From: a virus
Lineage: Duplodnaviria; Heunggongvirae; Uroviricota; Caudoviricetes
DNA length: 20,762 bases
Direction: 5' to 3' (one strand)
Virus record (IMG/VR): IMGVR_UViG_2718218128_000001
The first letter of the stretch is position 1. Every line of letters starts with the position of its first letter. Below, piece after piece: positions 10,994-19,699 of this stretch. Position numbers and translations under genes: made by a program. The notes below the pieces were generated by a model, which was given only the letters and a program-made list of their open reading frames with translations, had not been told where the DNA came from and did not search any database.

Positions 10994-11719
10994 TCAATCG
11001 TGAGTGGATATTTGCGAAACAAACTCTTTAACTCCATCTCGTTCAAGTATTTTACTGTCATGGATATACTTTACGATATCCCACTCGTAGTATGTACAAG
11101 CCATTGCAACTAAAGATATTATTTTTATGTCAGTTAAGTTAACTAATGTTTCATAATAATCTTCCCGTTCAACCCCGCAATTATCTATCAACTTCACAAT
11201 CAAATAAAAGCGACGCACCACTGAAAAAATGCAATCATTAGCATCCACTTCACTTAACCACTTTGTTATTACCTCTTTTTTTACCTTGGCTTTAACTAAA
11301 ATTACAATATTATCTTCAAGATAAGTTACGGCTGCACCACTTGTAAATTCTTCGACCACCCCGTCAGTTTGTCCATCAATATCACCAACTTGAACACAAA
11401 ACCTTTCAAAGTTAGAATCCTGACATTCAACCAAATGGAAAAATCTCACTTCAAATTTTTTATACTCTTCTAAAGATTCTTGCCTTTTTACTTCATCGAT
11501 CAGGCTGGAATTAGCCTCCCTTTGAAGTTTTATTGAATTTATAAGGAGGTAAATTGTAATAAATGAAAGTATAGGGTTGACGACACCACCCAAATAATCA
11601 CCAAACTGCGCCCAAACATCAGTCTTGCTGGATAAATGTCCGTTTACTCCGAAGTTGAAGTAATACAAGGCGCACACAGCTACAATCACGCCAGCCGAAG
11701 ACAGCAACACCTTTCTCAT
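10994..11719 (-). CDS. Hypothetical membrane protein of cargo cassette: two N-terminal TM helices plus ~180-aa soluble domain; candidate effector
   Basis: 241-aa ORF with ATG start overlapping the upstream gene's stop (ATGA). Hydrophobic segments at about residues 5-25 and 44-62. The region is AT-rich, unlike the phage backbone. No family recognised by eye. Confidence 0.6.
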   Translation of the reverse strand: MRKVLLSSAGVIVAVCALYYFNFGVNGHLSSKTDVWAQFGDYLGGVVNPILSFITIYLLINSIKLQREANSSLIDEVKRQESLEEYKKFEVRFFHLVECQDSNFERFCVQVGDIDGQTDGVVEEFTSGAAVTYLEDNIVILVKAKVKKEVITKWLSEVDANDCIFSVVRRFYLIVKLIDNCGVEREDYYETLVNLTDIKIISLVAMACTYYEWDIVKYIHDSKILERDGVKEFVSQISTHD

Positions 11720-12534
11720 ACAGTTTCAACCATACGGATTAGATATTTCACCACATCACCACTTTTTACTACAACTTTGCTAACAGTAAGTTTTAGATAT
11801 GTGTAGTTATCTTGCCTGCCATTATTATTGTGTAAATTTAATGAGACCAATCTTTTTTGAGCGGCGGGTATAGCCTTTAAAGGCATGTAAAAACCAAAGG
11901 CTACTGTATCATCTTCACCTTCGATAACTAACCTACCATTTCCAGTTCTCGCATTAAATCGAGTAATAACTGCGTTAATATTAACTTGACCGGGCTTTAT
12001 TTTTGATTGTGTCAAGTTTGTAGCAGTCATTGTGTCTAACTTTGCTATTCTTTGTTTTCCAGCAGGTTTTTTATAGTTAAGTTCAACATCAAAGTTTTTT
12101 TGAAGATTTATCCTATGCATCCTTACCAAAGGTTGTCTGATACGATCAATAAGTTCATCTTCAATTTCCTCAAGCTCCTCAATAATTCCTGCAGCTTTTG
12201 GAGATAGCTCCTTAGTTTCCAGATATAGAGATTCAGAAATAAAATACCCCATGACTTCCGAGAACACAGAACGGGTCATTTTTTTTAATTCGGCAGCTAA
12301 TTCCGGCTCATTAACAATCAAGTCGAAGTTTTGACCATAAGAACTTTTAAAGCTTTGTTTGAGAACCGCTCGCGCAGGGTTAACATGAGTGCGGCGCTTA
12401 ATAATTTTTTTTCTGAGTATTGCCTCTGCTAGTATGCATGTCACCTCAGCCGTTCCAGAGAGGGTATCAAGGCCATACTCCATATCAACTTCTTGATCAC
12501 CACTTTTGATGACAACGTCATAGCTAACTTTCAT
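11716..12534 (-). CDS. Hypothetical soluble protein of cargo cassette; candidate sensor or enzymatic component
   Basis: The ORF track starts at GTG (12540). The ATG two codons in (12534) is preceded by AAGGA at 7-nt spacing, giving about 272 aa. No TM segments, and no nucleotidyltransferase or nuclease motif recognised by eye. AT-rich. Confidence 0.6.
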   Translation of the reverse strand: MKVSYDVVIKSGDQEVDMEYGLDTLSGTAEVTCILAEAILRKKIIKRRTHVNPARAVLKQSFKSSYGQNFDLIVNEPELAAELKKMTRSVFSEVMGYFISESLYLETKELSPKAAGIIEELEEIEDELIDRIRQPLVRMHRINLQKNFDVELNYKKPAGKQRIAKLDTMTATNLTQSKIKPGQVNINAVITRFNARTGNGRLVIEGEDDTVAFGFYMPLKAIPAAQKRLVSLNLHNNNGRQDNYTYLKLTVSKVVVKSGDVVKYLIRMVETV

Positions 12535-12597
12535 CGGCACATCCTTGATTTAGTAACCTTTGGTTATTATTTTTCATCTTCTACTCATTGACACCGA

Positions 12598-12642: not shown

Positions 12643-12661
12643 ATGCTTTCCCCGCCACGCC
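12643..12661. other. cos-like site (19-nt cohesive end sequence)
   Basis: Plus-strand ATGCTTTCCCCGCCACGCC is the reverse complement of GGCGTGGCGGGGAAAGCAT. That matches my recollection of the phage 186 cohesive end and differs at 2 positions from P2 (GGCGAGGCGGGGAAAGCAC). It lies in a ~450-bp non-coding GC-rich stretch, in the expected place between Q and A. Confidence 0.6.
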
Positions 12662-12985: not shown

Positions 12986-13177
12986 TTATTTGTGCATTCT
13001 AATGTGGTTTAACAGGTGTTTGATAACGACCGTAAGCTCATCTTTACTGGCTTGCTCGACCATTTTTTCGGTGTAGCTTTCCACCTCACGAGAACTCAGG
13101 TCGTTATTTGAAGCCATTACGGTCAGCTTTTTTGCCCAATCGGCAAACGGGTCTATCGATGAAAGGGAATTATGCAT
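12986..13177 (-). CDS. Small hypothetical protein (about 63 aa from the internal ATG)
   Basis: ORF with a GAGG Shine-Dalgarno-like sequence upstream of the ATG at 13177 and a terminator-like hairpin downstream. The start overlaps the divergent gene's start on an ATGCAT palindrome. No family recognised. Confidence 0.3.
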   Translation of the reverse strand: MHNSLSSIDPFADWAKKLTVMASNNDLSSREVESYTEKMVEQASKDELTVVIKHLLNHIRMHK

Positions 13178-13607
13178 GTCCAAAAACCTCGAATTATTTA
13201 ACCAGCAGACGGCGGAAATTTTTGCGGTGTTATGGGATAACTTCCCGGTGCCGCAGGTCATCACCTACGAAAAATTTAACGCCGTGCTACCTGATGACTA
13301 CTTTGACCAACTTAACTCACCGGAAATGAAAGCACTGAATCAGTTGCGTAGTGTGGTTGAGGGTACATTCACTTTTCTCAGTGAAAACGGCTACATCCAA
13401 TATGAAACAGACCATCAGACTTATTTTCGGGATGTGCGCCTGACCGAGAAAGCACTCGCCGTGCTCAACAAAAAGCCCGAGGCACTCGGCGGTAGTGAAA
13501 CGATGGGCGATAAGATTATCAGTGCGGTGAAAGACGGGACACCCGGAGTTATTGCAGGTGCGGTGACAAACCTGCTTTCACTCGGTGTCAATCTGGTAAC
13601 CAACTAA
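13176..13607 (+). CDS. Hypothetical protein, 143 aa (accessory gene)
   Basis: ATG start with a good AAGGGA Shine-Dalgarno sequence 7 nt upstream. It is on the opposite strand to the flanking phage operons and has a hydrophobic C-terminal segment (GVIAGAVTNLLSLGVNLV). No family recognised. Confidence 0.5.
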   Translation: MSKNLELFNQQTAEIFAVLWDNFPVPQVITYEKFNAVLPDDYFDQLNSPEMKALNQLRSVVEGTFTFLSENGYIQYETDHQTYFRDVRLTEKALAVLNKKPEALGGSETMGDKIISAVKDGTPGVIAGAVTNLLSLGVNLVTN

Positions 13608-13673: not shown

Positions 13674-13907
13674 TTAATGCAGCCAGCTATCGTCCTCCCA
13701 TACCTGCTGCATGATTTCCATTACTCGTTTTTTATCTTCGTCCAGTTTCAAACCGCTTAGTTCAACGCCATTAGCGGAGCCCTTGCGAATTCGGATAGCA
13801 GTCTTTGGGTAAATAGGTTGAAGATTGCGGTACAGTTCAGCCTCAAGTGCATCCAATGTTGCCTGACTAATTTTTTGCTCTTTATCCAACGTGATATTGA
13901 TTCTCAT
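13674..13907 (-). CDS. DinI-family protein (Tum-like antirepressor candidate)
   Basis: 77 aa, alignable by eye to E. coli DinI: MRI.VT. at the N-terminus, DAL..EL.R..Q in the middle, EDK.R..EI.Q..WE near the C-terminus. Downstream of a LexA box. Confidence 0.8.
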   Translation of the reverse strand: MRINITLDKEQKISQATLDALEAELYRNLQPIYPKTAIRIRKGSANGVELSGLKLDEDKKRVMEIMQQVWEDDSWLH

Positions 13908-13910
13908 AAT

Positions 13911-14093
13911 CTAATCAGCCTTATAAAAATTATCATCTTCGGTTTCGTTATTTTCGCTGTTTGCTAGGTCTGCAATGAGAGTGAGCGCGAGCTTTAAGTC
14001 TGATGGCTTGCAGTTTGCAATCAGAGATACCTCGGCAATAAATTGCACACAAGCCCACTTTTGCTGCGTTCGGCTGAAATGTTCGCCAACCAT
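13911..14093 (-). CDS. Small hypothetical protein (60 aa), first gene of the LexA-box operon
   Basis: ATG start preceded by a strong GGGAGGGA Shine-Dalgarno sequence. Its stop lies 3 nt before the DinI-like start, suggesting coupling. The LexA box is about 20 nt upstream. Confidence 0.45.
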   Translation of the reverse strand: MVGEHFSRTQQKWACVQFIAEVSLIANCKPSDLKLALTLIADLANSENNETEDDNFYKAD

Positions 14094-14112
14094 GAAATCC
14101 CTCCCATAGGGT

Positions 14113-14132
14113 TACTGTATGTTTATACAGTA
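14113..14132. promoter_or_regulatory. LexA (SOS) box
   Basis: TACTGTATGTTTATACAGTA has perfect CTGT-N8-ACAG spacing and matches 17 of 20 positions of the consensus TACTGTATATATATACAGTA. It sits between the stop of gene A and the 60-aa/DinI-like operon. Confidence 0.75.
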
Positions 14133-14206
14133 GCACGTATTGGCAAAAGATGGGAAGAAAAAAAACGAATAGAGCGATTGCTGTATGTGCATGATATGGA
14201 TATGAA

Positions 14207-16429
14207 TTACTCATGTATTGGTTTTGATTCTTCAGCCATCGCCGCAACACGATTAAGGATTTTCCGAGCTTTAGCCTCATGCGATGGTGCTGCGGAAAAT
14301 ATTTCTCCTTTGGCCGTTCCGCGTAGCCATTTACCATCAAAACAACTTTTACCACCGGCCATCAGGTGCAGGGCTTCGCCCCGGCTGATATTAATGCCGG
14401 TTGTCAGATGTATCTCATCGATAGTTTTAGCTATAGCTGCGTTTTGCTCATCCGTTCCGTGGATGAATTTTCGCCGTGCTGCTGGCTTTTGCTTCCTGAG
14501 TCGGTTGGTCAATTCTCGTCTTTCACGCCGACTCAGTGGTTTTGTTAAATCCAGTATCGGTGGATCGCTTTCGCTTCCCGTACAGTTATTGACAGAACTC
14601 CGAGGGACGGCTTTGCCGTCCTGAAGGTCAACGGCCAAATCAACAGCACGCTTCGGAACAATCTTCCACTGAGTGAGCCGGGTTAAAATCGGGCTTCCTG
14701 CACCTATGGAGGAATCGTAGACCCCCTTAATACATACCGTTTCCTCACCGTACTGATTAAGCTCGGTACGCGGTTCATACAGTGTGCGCACCTGTAAATC
14801 ATCGCGACGGACAAACGGCCCACCCTGAGCATTAACATAACCAGCCCAGTCACCAGCGTCGGCGGCATCATGGACGGCGGCAAACTCAACGCTCAGACCG
14901 TGCGCGGTTTCGGTATCAGCGAGGCGACGCAACTCACGGTAAACCGTCACCGGCGCACCACCAATAAACTGAAACTGACGGATGTGCCAGCGCGCAGCCC
15001 ATGCTGAAACGGCGGGGGCTGTCTCTTTCAGCAGCTCACCGCTTTCATCATCGGTTTCACCATCGAGAGCATAACCGTCGATATTTTTTGAAATGTATTT
15101 AGCAACATAGCCGGTTGCGCTGCCTTTCTCCGGGTCAATGGACTCCGCGTGGAAACGTGCTTTTTGGGATTTATCGCTTTTCAGTTCGTGGCGGTCTTCT
15201 TTCCATGCGTATTTACGGACGATGGAGCGAACATATTCAACATCTTCCGGCAGCATGAACATCAGCATGTGCCAGTGTGGAGTGCCGTCGTGATGGGGCT
15301 CGGCGACACGAATACCGAAAATACGGACATCTTCCCGATGTAGTTTGGCACGGATACGCGCCCAGATACCGGTTAGATAGTTTTGCGTGTCAGCCGGGCT
15401 GGCACCGCTCCATTTGCTGTTACGGTAACCGGCTTTAGTCGTGGCGTGATATTTTGACGGCGCGGTTAGAGTGTAAAACTCACCGACATAACCGAGCTCA
15501 TTACAGATGTTTTCAAACCCACGAATGCGGGTCATGAGCTCACAGCGGCGAATCGCAGGGTTAGCAACTGAGCCATCATATTTTTCAATTAGGCTGATAC
15601 GGTTGCCGTCTTCGTCTTCGAGATCCAGACCTTTGAGAAATTCACGAGTGCGGCGCTTTTGTTCACGCCAGTCAGTCACGCAGTTTTTACTCGCGTAAGT
15701 GTTTTTTTTCTTACTGACGTTGCCGACTGCAATTTGCAGGTGTTCGCGCCACGTAGCTGCTACACGGCGCAAACGACCGCGCCACCACCCATCGTTAAAC
15801 ATTTTGGCGATAGCCGGTGCGATTTCATCCGCACCGACATATTTTTTTTCAACCCGCTCCCAATGTGGTGGGATAACGTTGAATTGGAGGGAAATAAAGC
15901 CAGCACGAATATACCAGGTGTACAGCGTTTTAAGCTCGCCGAATCCGTGGTCATTAATGTTGGCAAGTTCACCACGAATGAAATTAGCAATATCAGCGGC
16001 CAACAGGTCAACATCAGCGCGCGACATGTCCGGGAGACGGTTATATCGGGCGACCATATTAACCATGCGTGACGACAGATATTGCATTTGCTGAGTATCA
16101 AAATGACTTCCAAAAACAGCGGTTGATACCTTGCTGTTGATACCAGCGCATTCGTATTTTTTTGCGACCAGTTCAAGACGCGGCAATGCCTTTTTGCAGA
16201 AGCTGATTAAAAATGCATTGGCTCGTTGACTACCCTGATTTTGTTCCAGCACCGCAGCAGTGCGATAAACATCTAACCGCACGCAGTCGGGCTGGAGAGA
16301 AAGCACCTTTTTTGCATGCAGCAAAGCCGCGAACATACGGTCGCGGCGATGCTGTTGCTCATAAGTAAGGTATGGGCTGGAGATTGCCGACCGTGGGACG
16401 TTCCACGGATAAGCGAATTGAACAGCCAA
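14207..16429 (-). CDS. A: Replication initiation protein A (rolling-circle HUH endonuclease)
   Basis: 740-aa ORF (P2 gpA about 761 aa) with an HUH motif (GTPHWHMLMF) and a Tyr-containing active-site-like region (GYVAKYISKNIDGY). The ORF as drawn starts at TTG, so the exact start is uncertain. Confidence 0.9.
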   Translation of the reverse strand: MAVQFAYPWNVPRSAISSPYLTYEQQHRRDRMFAALLHAKKVLSLQPDCVRLDVYRTAAVLEQNQGSQRANAFLISFCKKALPRLELVAKKYECAGINSKVSTAVFGSHFDTQQMQYLSSRMVNMVARYNRLPDMSRADVDLLAADIANFIRGELANINDHGFGELKTLYTWYIRAGFISLQFNVIPPHWERVEKKYVGADEIAPAIAKMFNDGWWRGRLRRVAATWREHLQIAVGNVSKKKNTYASKNCVTDWREQKRRTREFLKGLDLEDEDGNRISLIEKYDGSVANPAIRRCELMTRIRGFENICNELGYVGEFYTLTAPSKYHATTKAGYRNSKWSGASPADTQNYLTGIWARIRAKLHREDVRIFGIRVAEPHHDGTPHWHMLMFMLPEDVEYVRSIVRKYAWKEDRHELKSDKSQKARFHAESIDPEKGSATGYVAKYISKNIDGYALDGETDDESGELLKETAPAVSAWAARWHIRQFQFIGGAPVTVYRELRRLADTETAHGLSVEFAAVHDAADAGDWAGYVNAQGGPFVRRDDLQVRTLYEPRTELNQYGEETVCIKGVYDSSIGAGSPILTRLTQWKIVPKRAVDLAVDLQDGKAVPRSSVNNCTGSESDPPILDLTKPLSRRERRELTNRLRKQKPAARRKFIHGTDEQNAAIAKTIDEIHLTTGINISRGEALHLMAGGKSCFDGKWLRGTAKGEIFSAAPSHEAKARKILNRVAAMAEESKPIHE

Positions 16430-17998: not shown

Positions 17999-18370
17999 TC
18001 AGTTAAGAGCGGTGCGCTGGTCGATGTAGCGACAATCAATCGCTTGTTGAGTCAGCTTATCGCGCCATGCTTTTACGTTTACGAGGGTTCGGCTTCGTTT
18101 AGCAGCTTCCTCTTTGTTGGAAAAGTCTTTGGTCGGAGCTTTGAGAAGGACTCCCTCATCGAGCCATTGCCAGACCAGACGCTCGCTAACACCGCGAGTA
18201 GCGGCGAAGTCTTTCACAGTCATCGTGTCTGACATAGCGGAGCGAATCATTGTCTGTAGAGCTGGCAGCATGGCGGTAACGATGGCATCAAACTGTGTTG
18301 GATCTAGCAGCACAGTTTGATTTTGTGAGTTTTGCGAGTCGTGCGTCGAGATTGATTTTGCATCTGACAT
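17999..18370 (-). CDS. Apl/Cox-like excisionase or early regulator (putative)
   Basis: First gene of the early operon, divergent from the repressor gene. Contains an HTH-like segment (MTVKDFAATRGVSERLVWQWLDEG). At 123 aa it is longer than 186 Apl or P2 Cox, so the start may be internal. Confidence 0.45.
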   Translation of the reverse strand: MSDAKSISTHDSQNSQNQTVLLDPTQFDAIVTAMLPALQTMIRSAMSDTMTVKDFAATRGVSERLVWQWLDEGVLLKAPTKDFSNKEEAAKRSRTLVNVKAWRDKLTQQAIDCRYIDQRTALN

Positions 18371-18491: not shown

Positions 18492-19352
18492 ATGAGTTCT
18501 GAGCTTGATGTTCAGTGGCGTGTTAGTGCAACGAACGGCGTATTGGAACGCTTAATGTCAGCCTATGGGGTCAAGATGCAAAAGGATTTGGCTGACCTGC
18601 TAGGTATCGCTAAACACAGCGTTAGCGGCTGGGTTCAGCGTGATGCAATACCTGGCAATGTCATAGTTAGGTGTTGTCTTGACACGGGAGCTGATATCAA
18701 TTGGCTTGTAAATGGAGAACTTGCAAATGCAAATCACGAGCGAGCCAGTTGCAAGTTAAAAGGCAAAGAGCTTTATGACGAGATTATGACGAATGGTGGT
18801 AAAACCGTTTTGCGTAGGATTCTTGATGCGTATGGCTTTACCATGCAAAAGGAGCTCGGTGATTTGCTCGGCATTTCCTCTGGCACAATTAGCACATGGG
18901 TAAGGCGAGATTTTTTCCCTGGTGATGTTGTTGTTACATGCGCTCTTGATACCGATACGTCACTGGAATGGTTAGCAACAGGCAAGGGGCAAATGCGAGC
19001 TAACAGGGAAGATGTCACATCTGGTTTTTCTATTAAAAAATCTCGTCTTGAATCTGGTGAGCTTAAGGATGCAGGAACGTGGCATCCTGACCCCTCAATG
19101 ATTCCTTCTAACTCAGGGGAATTGATTTTTGTTGACGGTGTAGCTGCCTCTTGGCTTGTCGACTGTTCTGCTTCGAATATAAGTAATGGTCGCTGGTTAA
19201 TTGATATCGACGGCGCTCTTGATGTTTTTGATGTAATTCGCTTGCCCGGTGGAAAAGTCAGGTTGTCAAATAAGTCTGCTGAGTTTGAATGCAACATTAC
19301 AGACATTACTCCTGCCGGGGCTGTAGTTTTCACATTGGAAAAACACGTGTAA
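18492..19352 (+). CDS. cI: CI-type immunity repressor with duplicated N-terminal HTH domain
   Basis: 286 aa, same strand as integrase and divergent from the early operon. Residues ~14-75 and ~105-166 are clear internal repeats (LERLMSAYGVKMQKDLADLLGI..SGWV.RD versus LRRILDAYGFTMQKELGDLLGI..STWVRRD). No GDSM-like serine motif was seen in the C-terminal domain. Confidence 0.7.
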   Translation: MSSELDVQWRVSATNGVLERLMSAYGVKMQKDLADLLGIAKHSVSGWVQRDAIPGNVIVRCCLDTGADINWLVNGELANANHERASCKLKGKELYDEIMTNGGKTVLRRILDAYGFTMQKELGDLLGISSGTISTWVRRDFFPGDVVVTCALDTDTSLEWLATGKGQMRANREDVTSGFSIKKSRLESGELKDAGTWHPDPSMIPSNSGELIFVDGVAASWLVDCSASNISNGRWLIDIDGALDVFDVIRLPGGKVRLSNKSAEFECNITDITPAGAVVFTLEKHV

Positions 19353-19360
19353 GGGACATT

Positions 19361-19699
19361 ATGAAATGTAAACTCTTTTTAGCTCTGCTTCTTACCCTTT
19401 CTTTTGGAGCCTCAGCCGCTGAAAAAACACAGGATTTAGATGGCGCTAAGTTTGGTGAGGATTGGCCGTTAACTTTTGAAAAAGCTACGGTGTCTTGTGT
19501 CAACGGTAAATATGCCTTTGTGTACGACAAAGCAACAGATGACCGATACCCATTAAATGGTTTTGCGATTGATGGAGTAAAGTCTGGAAAGCTTGAGGGG
19601 AGCAATATTGATACTGTTTGGAAAGATAGCCCGGAGTATGCAGGCGTAAAAATTCCTTTGGATCCTGTAATGGATGCTGCAACAGCACTTTGGGAATAA
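19361..19699 (+). CDS. Small secreted protein (signal peptide), possibly YebY/DUF2511-like; moron candidate
   Basis: ATG at 19361 gives MKCKLFLALLLTLSFGASA followed by AEK, a typical Sec signal peptide. The mature region has W..F...TVSC..G and YPLNG, resembling YebY-type periplasmic proteins from memory. Lies between the repressor and integrase genes. Confidence 0.5.
   Translation: MKCKLFLALLLTLSFGASAAEKTQDLDGAKFGEDWPLTFEKATVSCVNGKYAFVYDKATDDRYPLNGFAIDGVKSGKLEGSNIDTVWKDSPEYAGVKIPLDPVMDAATALWE

Follow-up and report, generated by a model that had tools for sequence, protein, structure and literature searches.

Replication gene A is followed, on the minus strand of the window (the whole 20,762-nucleotide stretch of DNA that was analysed), by a LexA box and two small open-reading frames, here called tumA and tumB (Table 1). 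The tumA frame ends in a TAG stop codon, which is separated by 3 nt from the ATG of tumB. A near-consensus LexA box upstream of a 60-aa ORF, and the succession of this ORF, its stop, 3 nt and the start of a 77-aa DinI-family ORF, had both been described in an earlier note made from the sequence alone. Both observations were confirmed, with the box lying 19 nt from the tumA ATG and the second product matching the Pfam DinI family PF06183 at E=7.4e-24 (84.3 bits, cut-off 24.2) over profile positions 2-63 of 63.

The window is a PSP3-like, 186-like (Eganvirus) prophage of the P2-like group. Its DNA is 96% identical to that of Escherichia phage vB_EcoM-613R3, and the Salmonella phages PSP3 and SEN1 match most of the window at 88-90% DNA identity. 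Along the minus strand the order is cII, fil, DUF5347, DUF2732, a TraR-like gene, replication gene A, the LexA box and the two small ORFs, the same gene order as in the 186 early region, with cI and int divergent from these minus-strand early genes. Homologues of gene A are labelled replication endonuclease or gpA in PSP3, vB_EcoM-613R3 and E. coli genomes. The sequence GGCGTGGCGGGGAAAGCAT, an exact match to the P2/186 cos pattern, is taken as cos and as the end of the phage chromosome; the tum module accordingly lies close to the right end, where tum also lies in 186. A search of the whole window against Rfam at the gathering threshold gave no match.

Table 1 Positions of the features discussed in the text, numbered along the window unless another record is given
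Feature	Position	Strand	Remark
241-aa gene, phrog_8999	10994-11719	-	between cos and the portal gene
274-aa gene, phrog_13337	11716-12540	-	overlaps the 241-aa gene; between cos and the portal gene
cos cohesive-end sequence (assumed), GGCGTGGCGGGGAAAGCAT	12643..12661	-	exact match to the P2/186 cos pattern; ~1 kb beyond tumB
Small ORF, phrog_2454, function unannotated	12986-13264	-	overlaps the 143-aa gene
143-aa gene, phrog_2266, function unannotated	13176-13607	+	convergent, between tumB and cos
tumB, 77-aa DinI-family protein	13674..13907	-	ATG 3 nt past the tumA stop
tumA, 60-aa predicted antirepressor	13911..14093	-	putative counterpart of the N-terminal part of 186 Tum
Shine-Dalgarno sequence of tumA, GGGAGG	14100..14105	-	read from the sequence; conserved in the upstream alignment
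LexA operator (SOS box), TACTGTATGTTTATACAGTA; TACTGTATAAACATACAGTA in the direction of transcription	14113..14132	-	near-consensus; unique in the window
Putative p95-type promoter	14127..14156	-	-35 TTCCCA (14151-14156), 18-nt spacer, -10 TACTGT (14127-14132)
Replication gene A (P2/186 A-type nickase)	14207..16429	-	directly upstream of tumA; synteny anchor
Gene in apl position, 123 aa, phrog_3554	17999-18370	-	weak Cox-like match; longer than 186 Apl
cI immunity repressor, 286 aa	18492..19352	+	presumed target of TumA
DUF2511 gene	19289-19699	+	between cI and int
Split module of E. coli HS	L030 19540-20052 = NC_009800.1 924539-925051		62-aa ORF and DinI-like gene

LexA box and putative promoter of tumA

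The LexA box differs from the consensus TACTGTATATATATACAGTA at two positions, both within the AT-rich centre. It was the single match to the LexA consensus in the window, and 100 shuffles yielded no match at all; the simpler pattern CTGT-N8-ACAG also occurs once in the 20.7 kb (0.15 occurrences expected), and that occurrence is the LexA box. The placement of the box was then compared over 27 loci, comprising the window, PSP3 and 25 species-level genome loci, and in all 27 a LexA box was present 17-23 nt upstream of the start codon of the tumA homologue. Because the box precedes a homologous small ORF in every one of these loci, the arrangement is, on the evidence of this comparison, more than chance.

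A generic sigma-70 scan of the module called no promoter, the -10 hexamer being weak, and the promoter was placed solely via alignment to the annotated p95 promoter of phage 186. In that alignment the window sequence corresponds column for column with p95 (TTCACA, 18 nt, TACTGT), and the first six bases of the LexA box form the -10 hexamer. The CTTC(C/A)CA block and its spacing are kept across most loci in the upstream alignment. The SOS operon of 186 (p95, LexA site, tum and orf97) has its LexA-repressed promoter right after gene A, and the putative promoter of the window stands in the corresponding place. By this correspondence, we infer that LexA binds and that a p95-type promoter is active at the window copy. 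A generic scan for promoters and terminators found no intrinsic terminator after tumB.

On its opposite strand, the annotated LexA site of p95 is the same 20-mer as the window box. If both boxes are read along transcription, the 8 nt at the centre of the window box, ATAAACAT, are exactly the reverse complement of the 186 centre, ATGTTTAT (L002 3045-3064). Among the relatives, both orientations of the centre occur, as do intermediates, and a meaningful inversion relative to 186 was set aside on this ground; the difference is probably drift in the AT-rich spacer. A separate block, ATCCATATCATGNACATACAG, lies just past the gene A stop (about 14178-14200, minus strand) and is kept in 186, PSP3 and about 10 other loci, with diverging sequence on its flanks, while some distant loci have a short perfect inverted repeat there instead. 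No function is annotated for this block in 186.

The split tum module and its conservation

The two ORFs had been interpreted in the earlier note as a Tum-type antirepressor module split in two, and the comparison with 186 supports this reading, as the module is the counterpart of 186 p95-tum by its position, by its block of promoter and LexA box, and by homology. In 186 Tum, an N-terminal antirepressor region and a C-terminal DinI-like region are joined in one 146-aa polypeptide, whereas the stop, spacer and new ATG of the window keep the two parts from forming a single polypeptide of ~146 aa. The window module is a split relative and not a Tum protein of the 186 type. A three-way DNA alignment showed that the window, PSP3 and 186 stay colinear as the sequence passes from the gene A end into the 5′ part of the coding region, and that both the window and PSP3 lack ~36 nt from the stretch coding for the linker in 186. 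Nested internal starts are annotated within the tum gene of 186, and from one of them, a GTG, the phage produces a free DinI-like protein of 76 aa, annotated as 'truncated Tum' that 'modulates SOS induction'. The 186 gene orf97 is absent from the window.

PSP3 has these two genes too (AAN08399, AAN08400), and their order, the 3-nt junction and their place after gene A all agree with the window. Over 661 bp, the region of the window module is 94.4% identical in DNA to PSP3 (AY135486), and the proteins are 98.3% (TumA) and 98.7% (TumB) identical. The annotation of PSP3 tumA reads 'similar to 5' end 186 tum; UV induction of prophage', and PSP3 tumB is described as 'similar to dinI and 3' end of 186 tum'. 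The PSP3 LexA box lies 20 nt from the ATG, compared to 19 nt in the window, and differs by one base in its centre. Downstream of tumB, PSP3 carries gp37 and gp38 on the same strand, whereas the cargo at this place in the window is different and includes a convergent 143-aa gene ahead of cos. The module is the split tum of the PSP3 type, consisting of tumA and tumB after gene A with a LexA operator upstream of tumA.

The split is already known from PSP3 and Fels-2, the window copy being 98% identical in protein to an annotated one. In PSP3 the arrangement has been annotated since 2002, and published work points to it in arguing that 186 Tum joins an antirepressor to a DinI homologue. In Lemire et al. 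2011, which cites Bunny et al. 2002, tum is described as split by a stop codon in PSP3 and Fels-2, and the upstream PSP3 gene is given, second hand, as the antirepressor from a personal communication of G. Christie in Bunny et al. 2002 (PMC3121763). Lemire et al. 2011 also state that 186 Tum looks like an antirepressor fused to DinI (PMC3121763).

Alignment of both ORFs to 186 Tum, which the earlier note had suggested, gave a clear result for the 77-aa product and a weaker one for the 60-aa product. TumB aligned with residues 71-145 of Tum at 47% identity (E=5e-28), and its Met1 falls on Tum residue 71; counted from the 186 coordinates, codon 71 is the annotated internal GTG start. TumB also matched the E. 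coli DinI structure 1GHH (E=1.3e-8). Its score against the NCBIfam equivalog for chromosomal DinI was 52 bits, below the cut-off of 111, and because of this shortfall TumB is classed by profile as a member of the DinI family that is not the orthologue of host DinI. RecA-filament binding and SOS modulation would be the activities expected of TumB from its family membership. For TumA, no BLASTP alignment to 186 Tum was obtained, while an HMM of the TumA family matched Tum residues 14-49 at 13.4 bits, compared to a best score of 5.6 in 2000 shuffles, with the common core C-x3-D-x2-LAL-x-LIA-[DE]-[LI]-A. This weak profile match, taken with synteny, links TumA to the N-terminal region of Tum (residues 1-70), which is the region missing from the shortest truncated Tum of 76 aa, a product annotated only for the modulation of SOS induction.

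No match to TumA was found in Pfam, NCBIfam, PADLOC or the PDB sequences. The protein belongs to phrog_1993, labelled 'unknown function', and the gene is named 'hypothetical protein' by PGAP. An AF2 model gave a two-helix hairpin with an acidic tail at moderate confidence (pLDDT 72.5). A database search with TumA returned a family of 226 clusters at 90% identity, from host genera that include Escherichia, Salmonella, Klebsiella, Citrobacter, Cronobacter, Enterobacter, Kosakonia and others. Among the 120 clusters listed, nearly all were 59-62 aa in length; 110 fell within 51-66 aa, and the remaining 10 were longer as a result of start codons called too far upstream. The core of the protein, W12-E46, is nearly invariant, and the acidic tail behind it varies. 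The module was detected in 103 of 5426 complete E. coli genomes, 36 of them with at least 80% of the query covered, and many other Enterobacteriaceae also carry it. In two contigs, labelled 'Bacillota bacterium MAG' (L010) and 'Chryseobacterium sp. 18061' (L013), a tumA that is 84-90% identical lies in enterobacterial P2-like prophage DNA, and the presence of this DNA is probably due to contamination or misbinning in the assemblies.

The earlier note had left a choice between a genuine two-protein variant and a disrupted tum, and of these the first stood, on the strength of the PSP3 genes, the conservation of tumA and its frequent occurrence without a DinI gene. The second would mean that a nonsense mutation had cut a fused tum and left a prophage that is no longer SOS-inducible, as might be supposed from the single 146-aa ORF of 186, the best-studied relative, and from the 38 phage records matching the N-terminal region of 186 Tum, at least 28 of which have the fused form. 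Against this, the dN/dS of the tumA core relative to the window copy was 0.01-0.14 wherever dS was measurable, and at distant loci the synonymous sites are saturated while the protein is kept. By these measures tumA is under purifying selection and widely conserved. The 60-aa form is kept in length and sequence across many enterobacterial genera, the ~36 nt of linker are absent rather than interrupted, tumB has its own ATG, and PSP3, with its gene annotated for UV induction, is a described phage. The disrupted-gene reading was rejected on conservation and dN/dS, and we regard it as extremely unlikely.

A DinI-like gene follows tumA in just 9 of the 27 loci, and in one of these nine (L017) it is cut to 54 aa. 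Where it is missing, the next genes are cargo or late genes, such as those for tail protein X or holin. Because the DinI gene follows in so few loci, this distribution marks tumA as an autonomous, selected gene, predicted to be LexA-controlled, with tumB as an optional passenger. An autonomous and selected tumA with an optional tumB excludes a pseudogene, and it also argues against TumA and TumB being two subunits of an obligate antirepressor, in effect a non-covalent 146-aa Tum of which both parts are needed against CI. The genes are only 3 nt apart and probably co-translated, and both parts belong to one polypeptide in 186, as an obligate pair would lead one to expect. Such a pair is, however, difficult to reconcile with the loci that lack a complete DinI-like gene, with the free DinI-like product that 186 makes from its internal start, and with the attribution of antirepression to the upstream PSP3 gene alone in the literature (PMC3121763), and we consider it unlikely.

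CI repressor and proposed induction mechanism

The presumed target of TumA is the product of cI, which contains two tandem PF07022 HTH domains and a PF16452 C-terminal domain; no S24 peptidase domain was found in it by domain search. It is 97.9% identical to PSP3 CI and 32% identical to 186 CI over the whole length of the latter, which has one HTH domain in 192 aa compared to two in the 286 aa of the window protein. The window CI is a non-cleavable repressor of the 186 family and the likely target of TumA. A CI that has no self-cleavage domain requires an antirepressor for SOS induction, and the induction of 186 proceeds via p95, a promoter under LexA regulation, and Tum, an anti-CI factor (PMC7708051).

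We consider it highly probable that the module is the SOS operon of a PSP3-type (186-like, Eganvirus) prophage and that it works as follows. In a healthy lysogen, host LexA would sit on the operator, which overlaps the -10 hexamer, and silence tumA and tumB. Upon DNA damage, active RecA would promote the self-cleavage of LexA and the p95-type promoter would fire. TumA would then bind the phage CI, which would lose its hold on the lytic promoter so that lytic growth could begin, the block on CI being a reversible sequestration and not proteolysis. TumB would be translated from the start 3 nt past the tumA stop, probably by translational coupling. As a DinI-like RecA-filament binder, it would not be needed for antirepression and would most likely tune the strength or the duration of the SOS signal, corresponding to the truncated 76-aa Tum that 186 makes from its internal start.

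The same LexA-controlled pair might instead serve something other than induction, for example modulation of RecA and SOS by TumB with TumA as an unrelated small protein. This would fit with the weak similarity of TumA to Tum and the absence of a curated family annotation for it, and with the LexA-boxed DinI homologues that occur in many prophages and are dispensable for induction (PMC3121763). We find it very unlikely given that position, promoter and operator match the 186 tum operon, that a CI of this kind needs an antirepressor, that this type of TumA co-occurs with one CI lineage, and that published genetics in PSP3 (second hand, PMC3121763) and in E. coli HS (PMC12055606) speak for a role in induction.

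In E. coli HS, induction of the P2-like prophage DuoHS by mitomycin C is blocked by deletion of 'tum' or by lexA(Ind-) (PMC12055606). The 'tum' deleted in that study (the Phollow study) is ECHS_RS04495, a 62-aa ORF behind LexA-type boxes; this small ORF by itself is what induction requires. It is followed by ECHS_RS04500, a 77-aa DinI-like gene whose product is 79% identical to TumB, and the module stands right after the replication gene. The 62-aa product gave no BLASTP alignment to TumA, and the TumA HMM scored it at 1.9 bits, below the scores of shuffled sequences. The small ORF of HS is a third, different allele in the same split layout, paired with a single-HTH CI of 189 aa. Because it is not detectably homologous to TumA, the HS deletion result supports the architecture of the window by analogy only. 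A comparable logic is known from the prophages Gifsy-1/2/3 and Fels-1 (GfoA, GftA, FsoA), in which a LexA box drives an operon of a small antirepressor and a dinI homologue and the antirepressors bind a non-cleavable repressor (PMC3121763). These differ from the window in having dinI as the leading gene, in using antirepressors and repressors of unrelated families, and in being lambdoid and not P2-like (PMC3121763).

All seven distinct phages in the phage collection that have this TumA carry a PSP3-type CI (74-99.7% identity). In phages with a fused 186-type Tum, CI contains a single HTH and aligns only with residues ~100-280 of the window CI. CI was compared further in the 20 TumA-bearing loci, besides the window, in which a CI gene was found. 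The second HTH (HTH2, residues 100-168) was the best conserved segment at 67-96% identity, compared to 37-93% for the first (HTH1) and 31-85% for the C-terminal domain. In two of these loci, L012 and L013, CI is a 192-aa protein with one HTH, which shares 75% identity with HTH2 of the window, such that HTH2 is the only HTH retained in these proteins. The conservation of HTH2 suggests that it may be the segment recognised by TumA. We tentatively propose, as a possibility short of a probable one, that the small antirepressors of P2/186-like phages form at least three highly diverged types (the N-domain of 186 Tum, PSP3 TumA and the 'Tum' of E. coli HS), each with its own CI lineage, and that PSP3-type TumA recognises the HTH2 of CI. 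If this is true, the variable HTH1 or the C-terminal domain would set immunity specificity, and a conserved pair of TumA and HTH2 would let a single antirepressor induce several heteroimmune prophages at once.

For a gene that PGAP names hypothetical and to which Pfam, NCBIfam and PHROGs give no function, the assignment has some practical value, as a LexA box followed by the 60-aa ORF is a reliable marker for an SOS-inducible P2-like prophage.

Cargo genes around the module

Two sets of unannotated cargo genes flank the assumed cos site. On the tumB side, the phrog_2266 and phrog_2454 genes occupy the place of gp37 and gp38 in PSP3 and of orf97 in 186. On the other side, the 241-aa protein had no match in Pfam or NCBIfam and a weak ZorB/MotB match in PADLOC (E=0.002), while the 274-aa protein had no NCBIfam match and a sub-threshold match to Pfam DUF7947 (E=0.039). 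From their position, the 241-aa and 274-aa genes are candidates for a moron or an anti-phage system. The closest phage, vB_EcoM-613R3, carries different cargo in place of these two genes.
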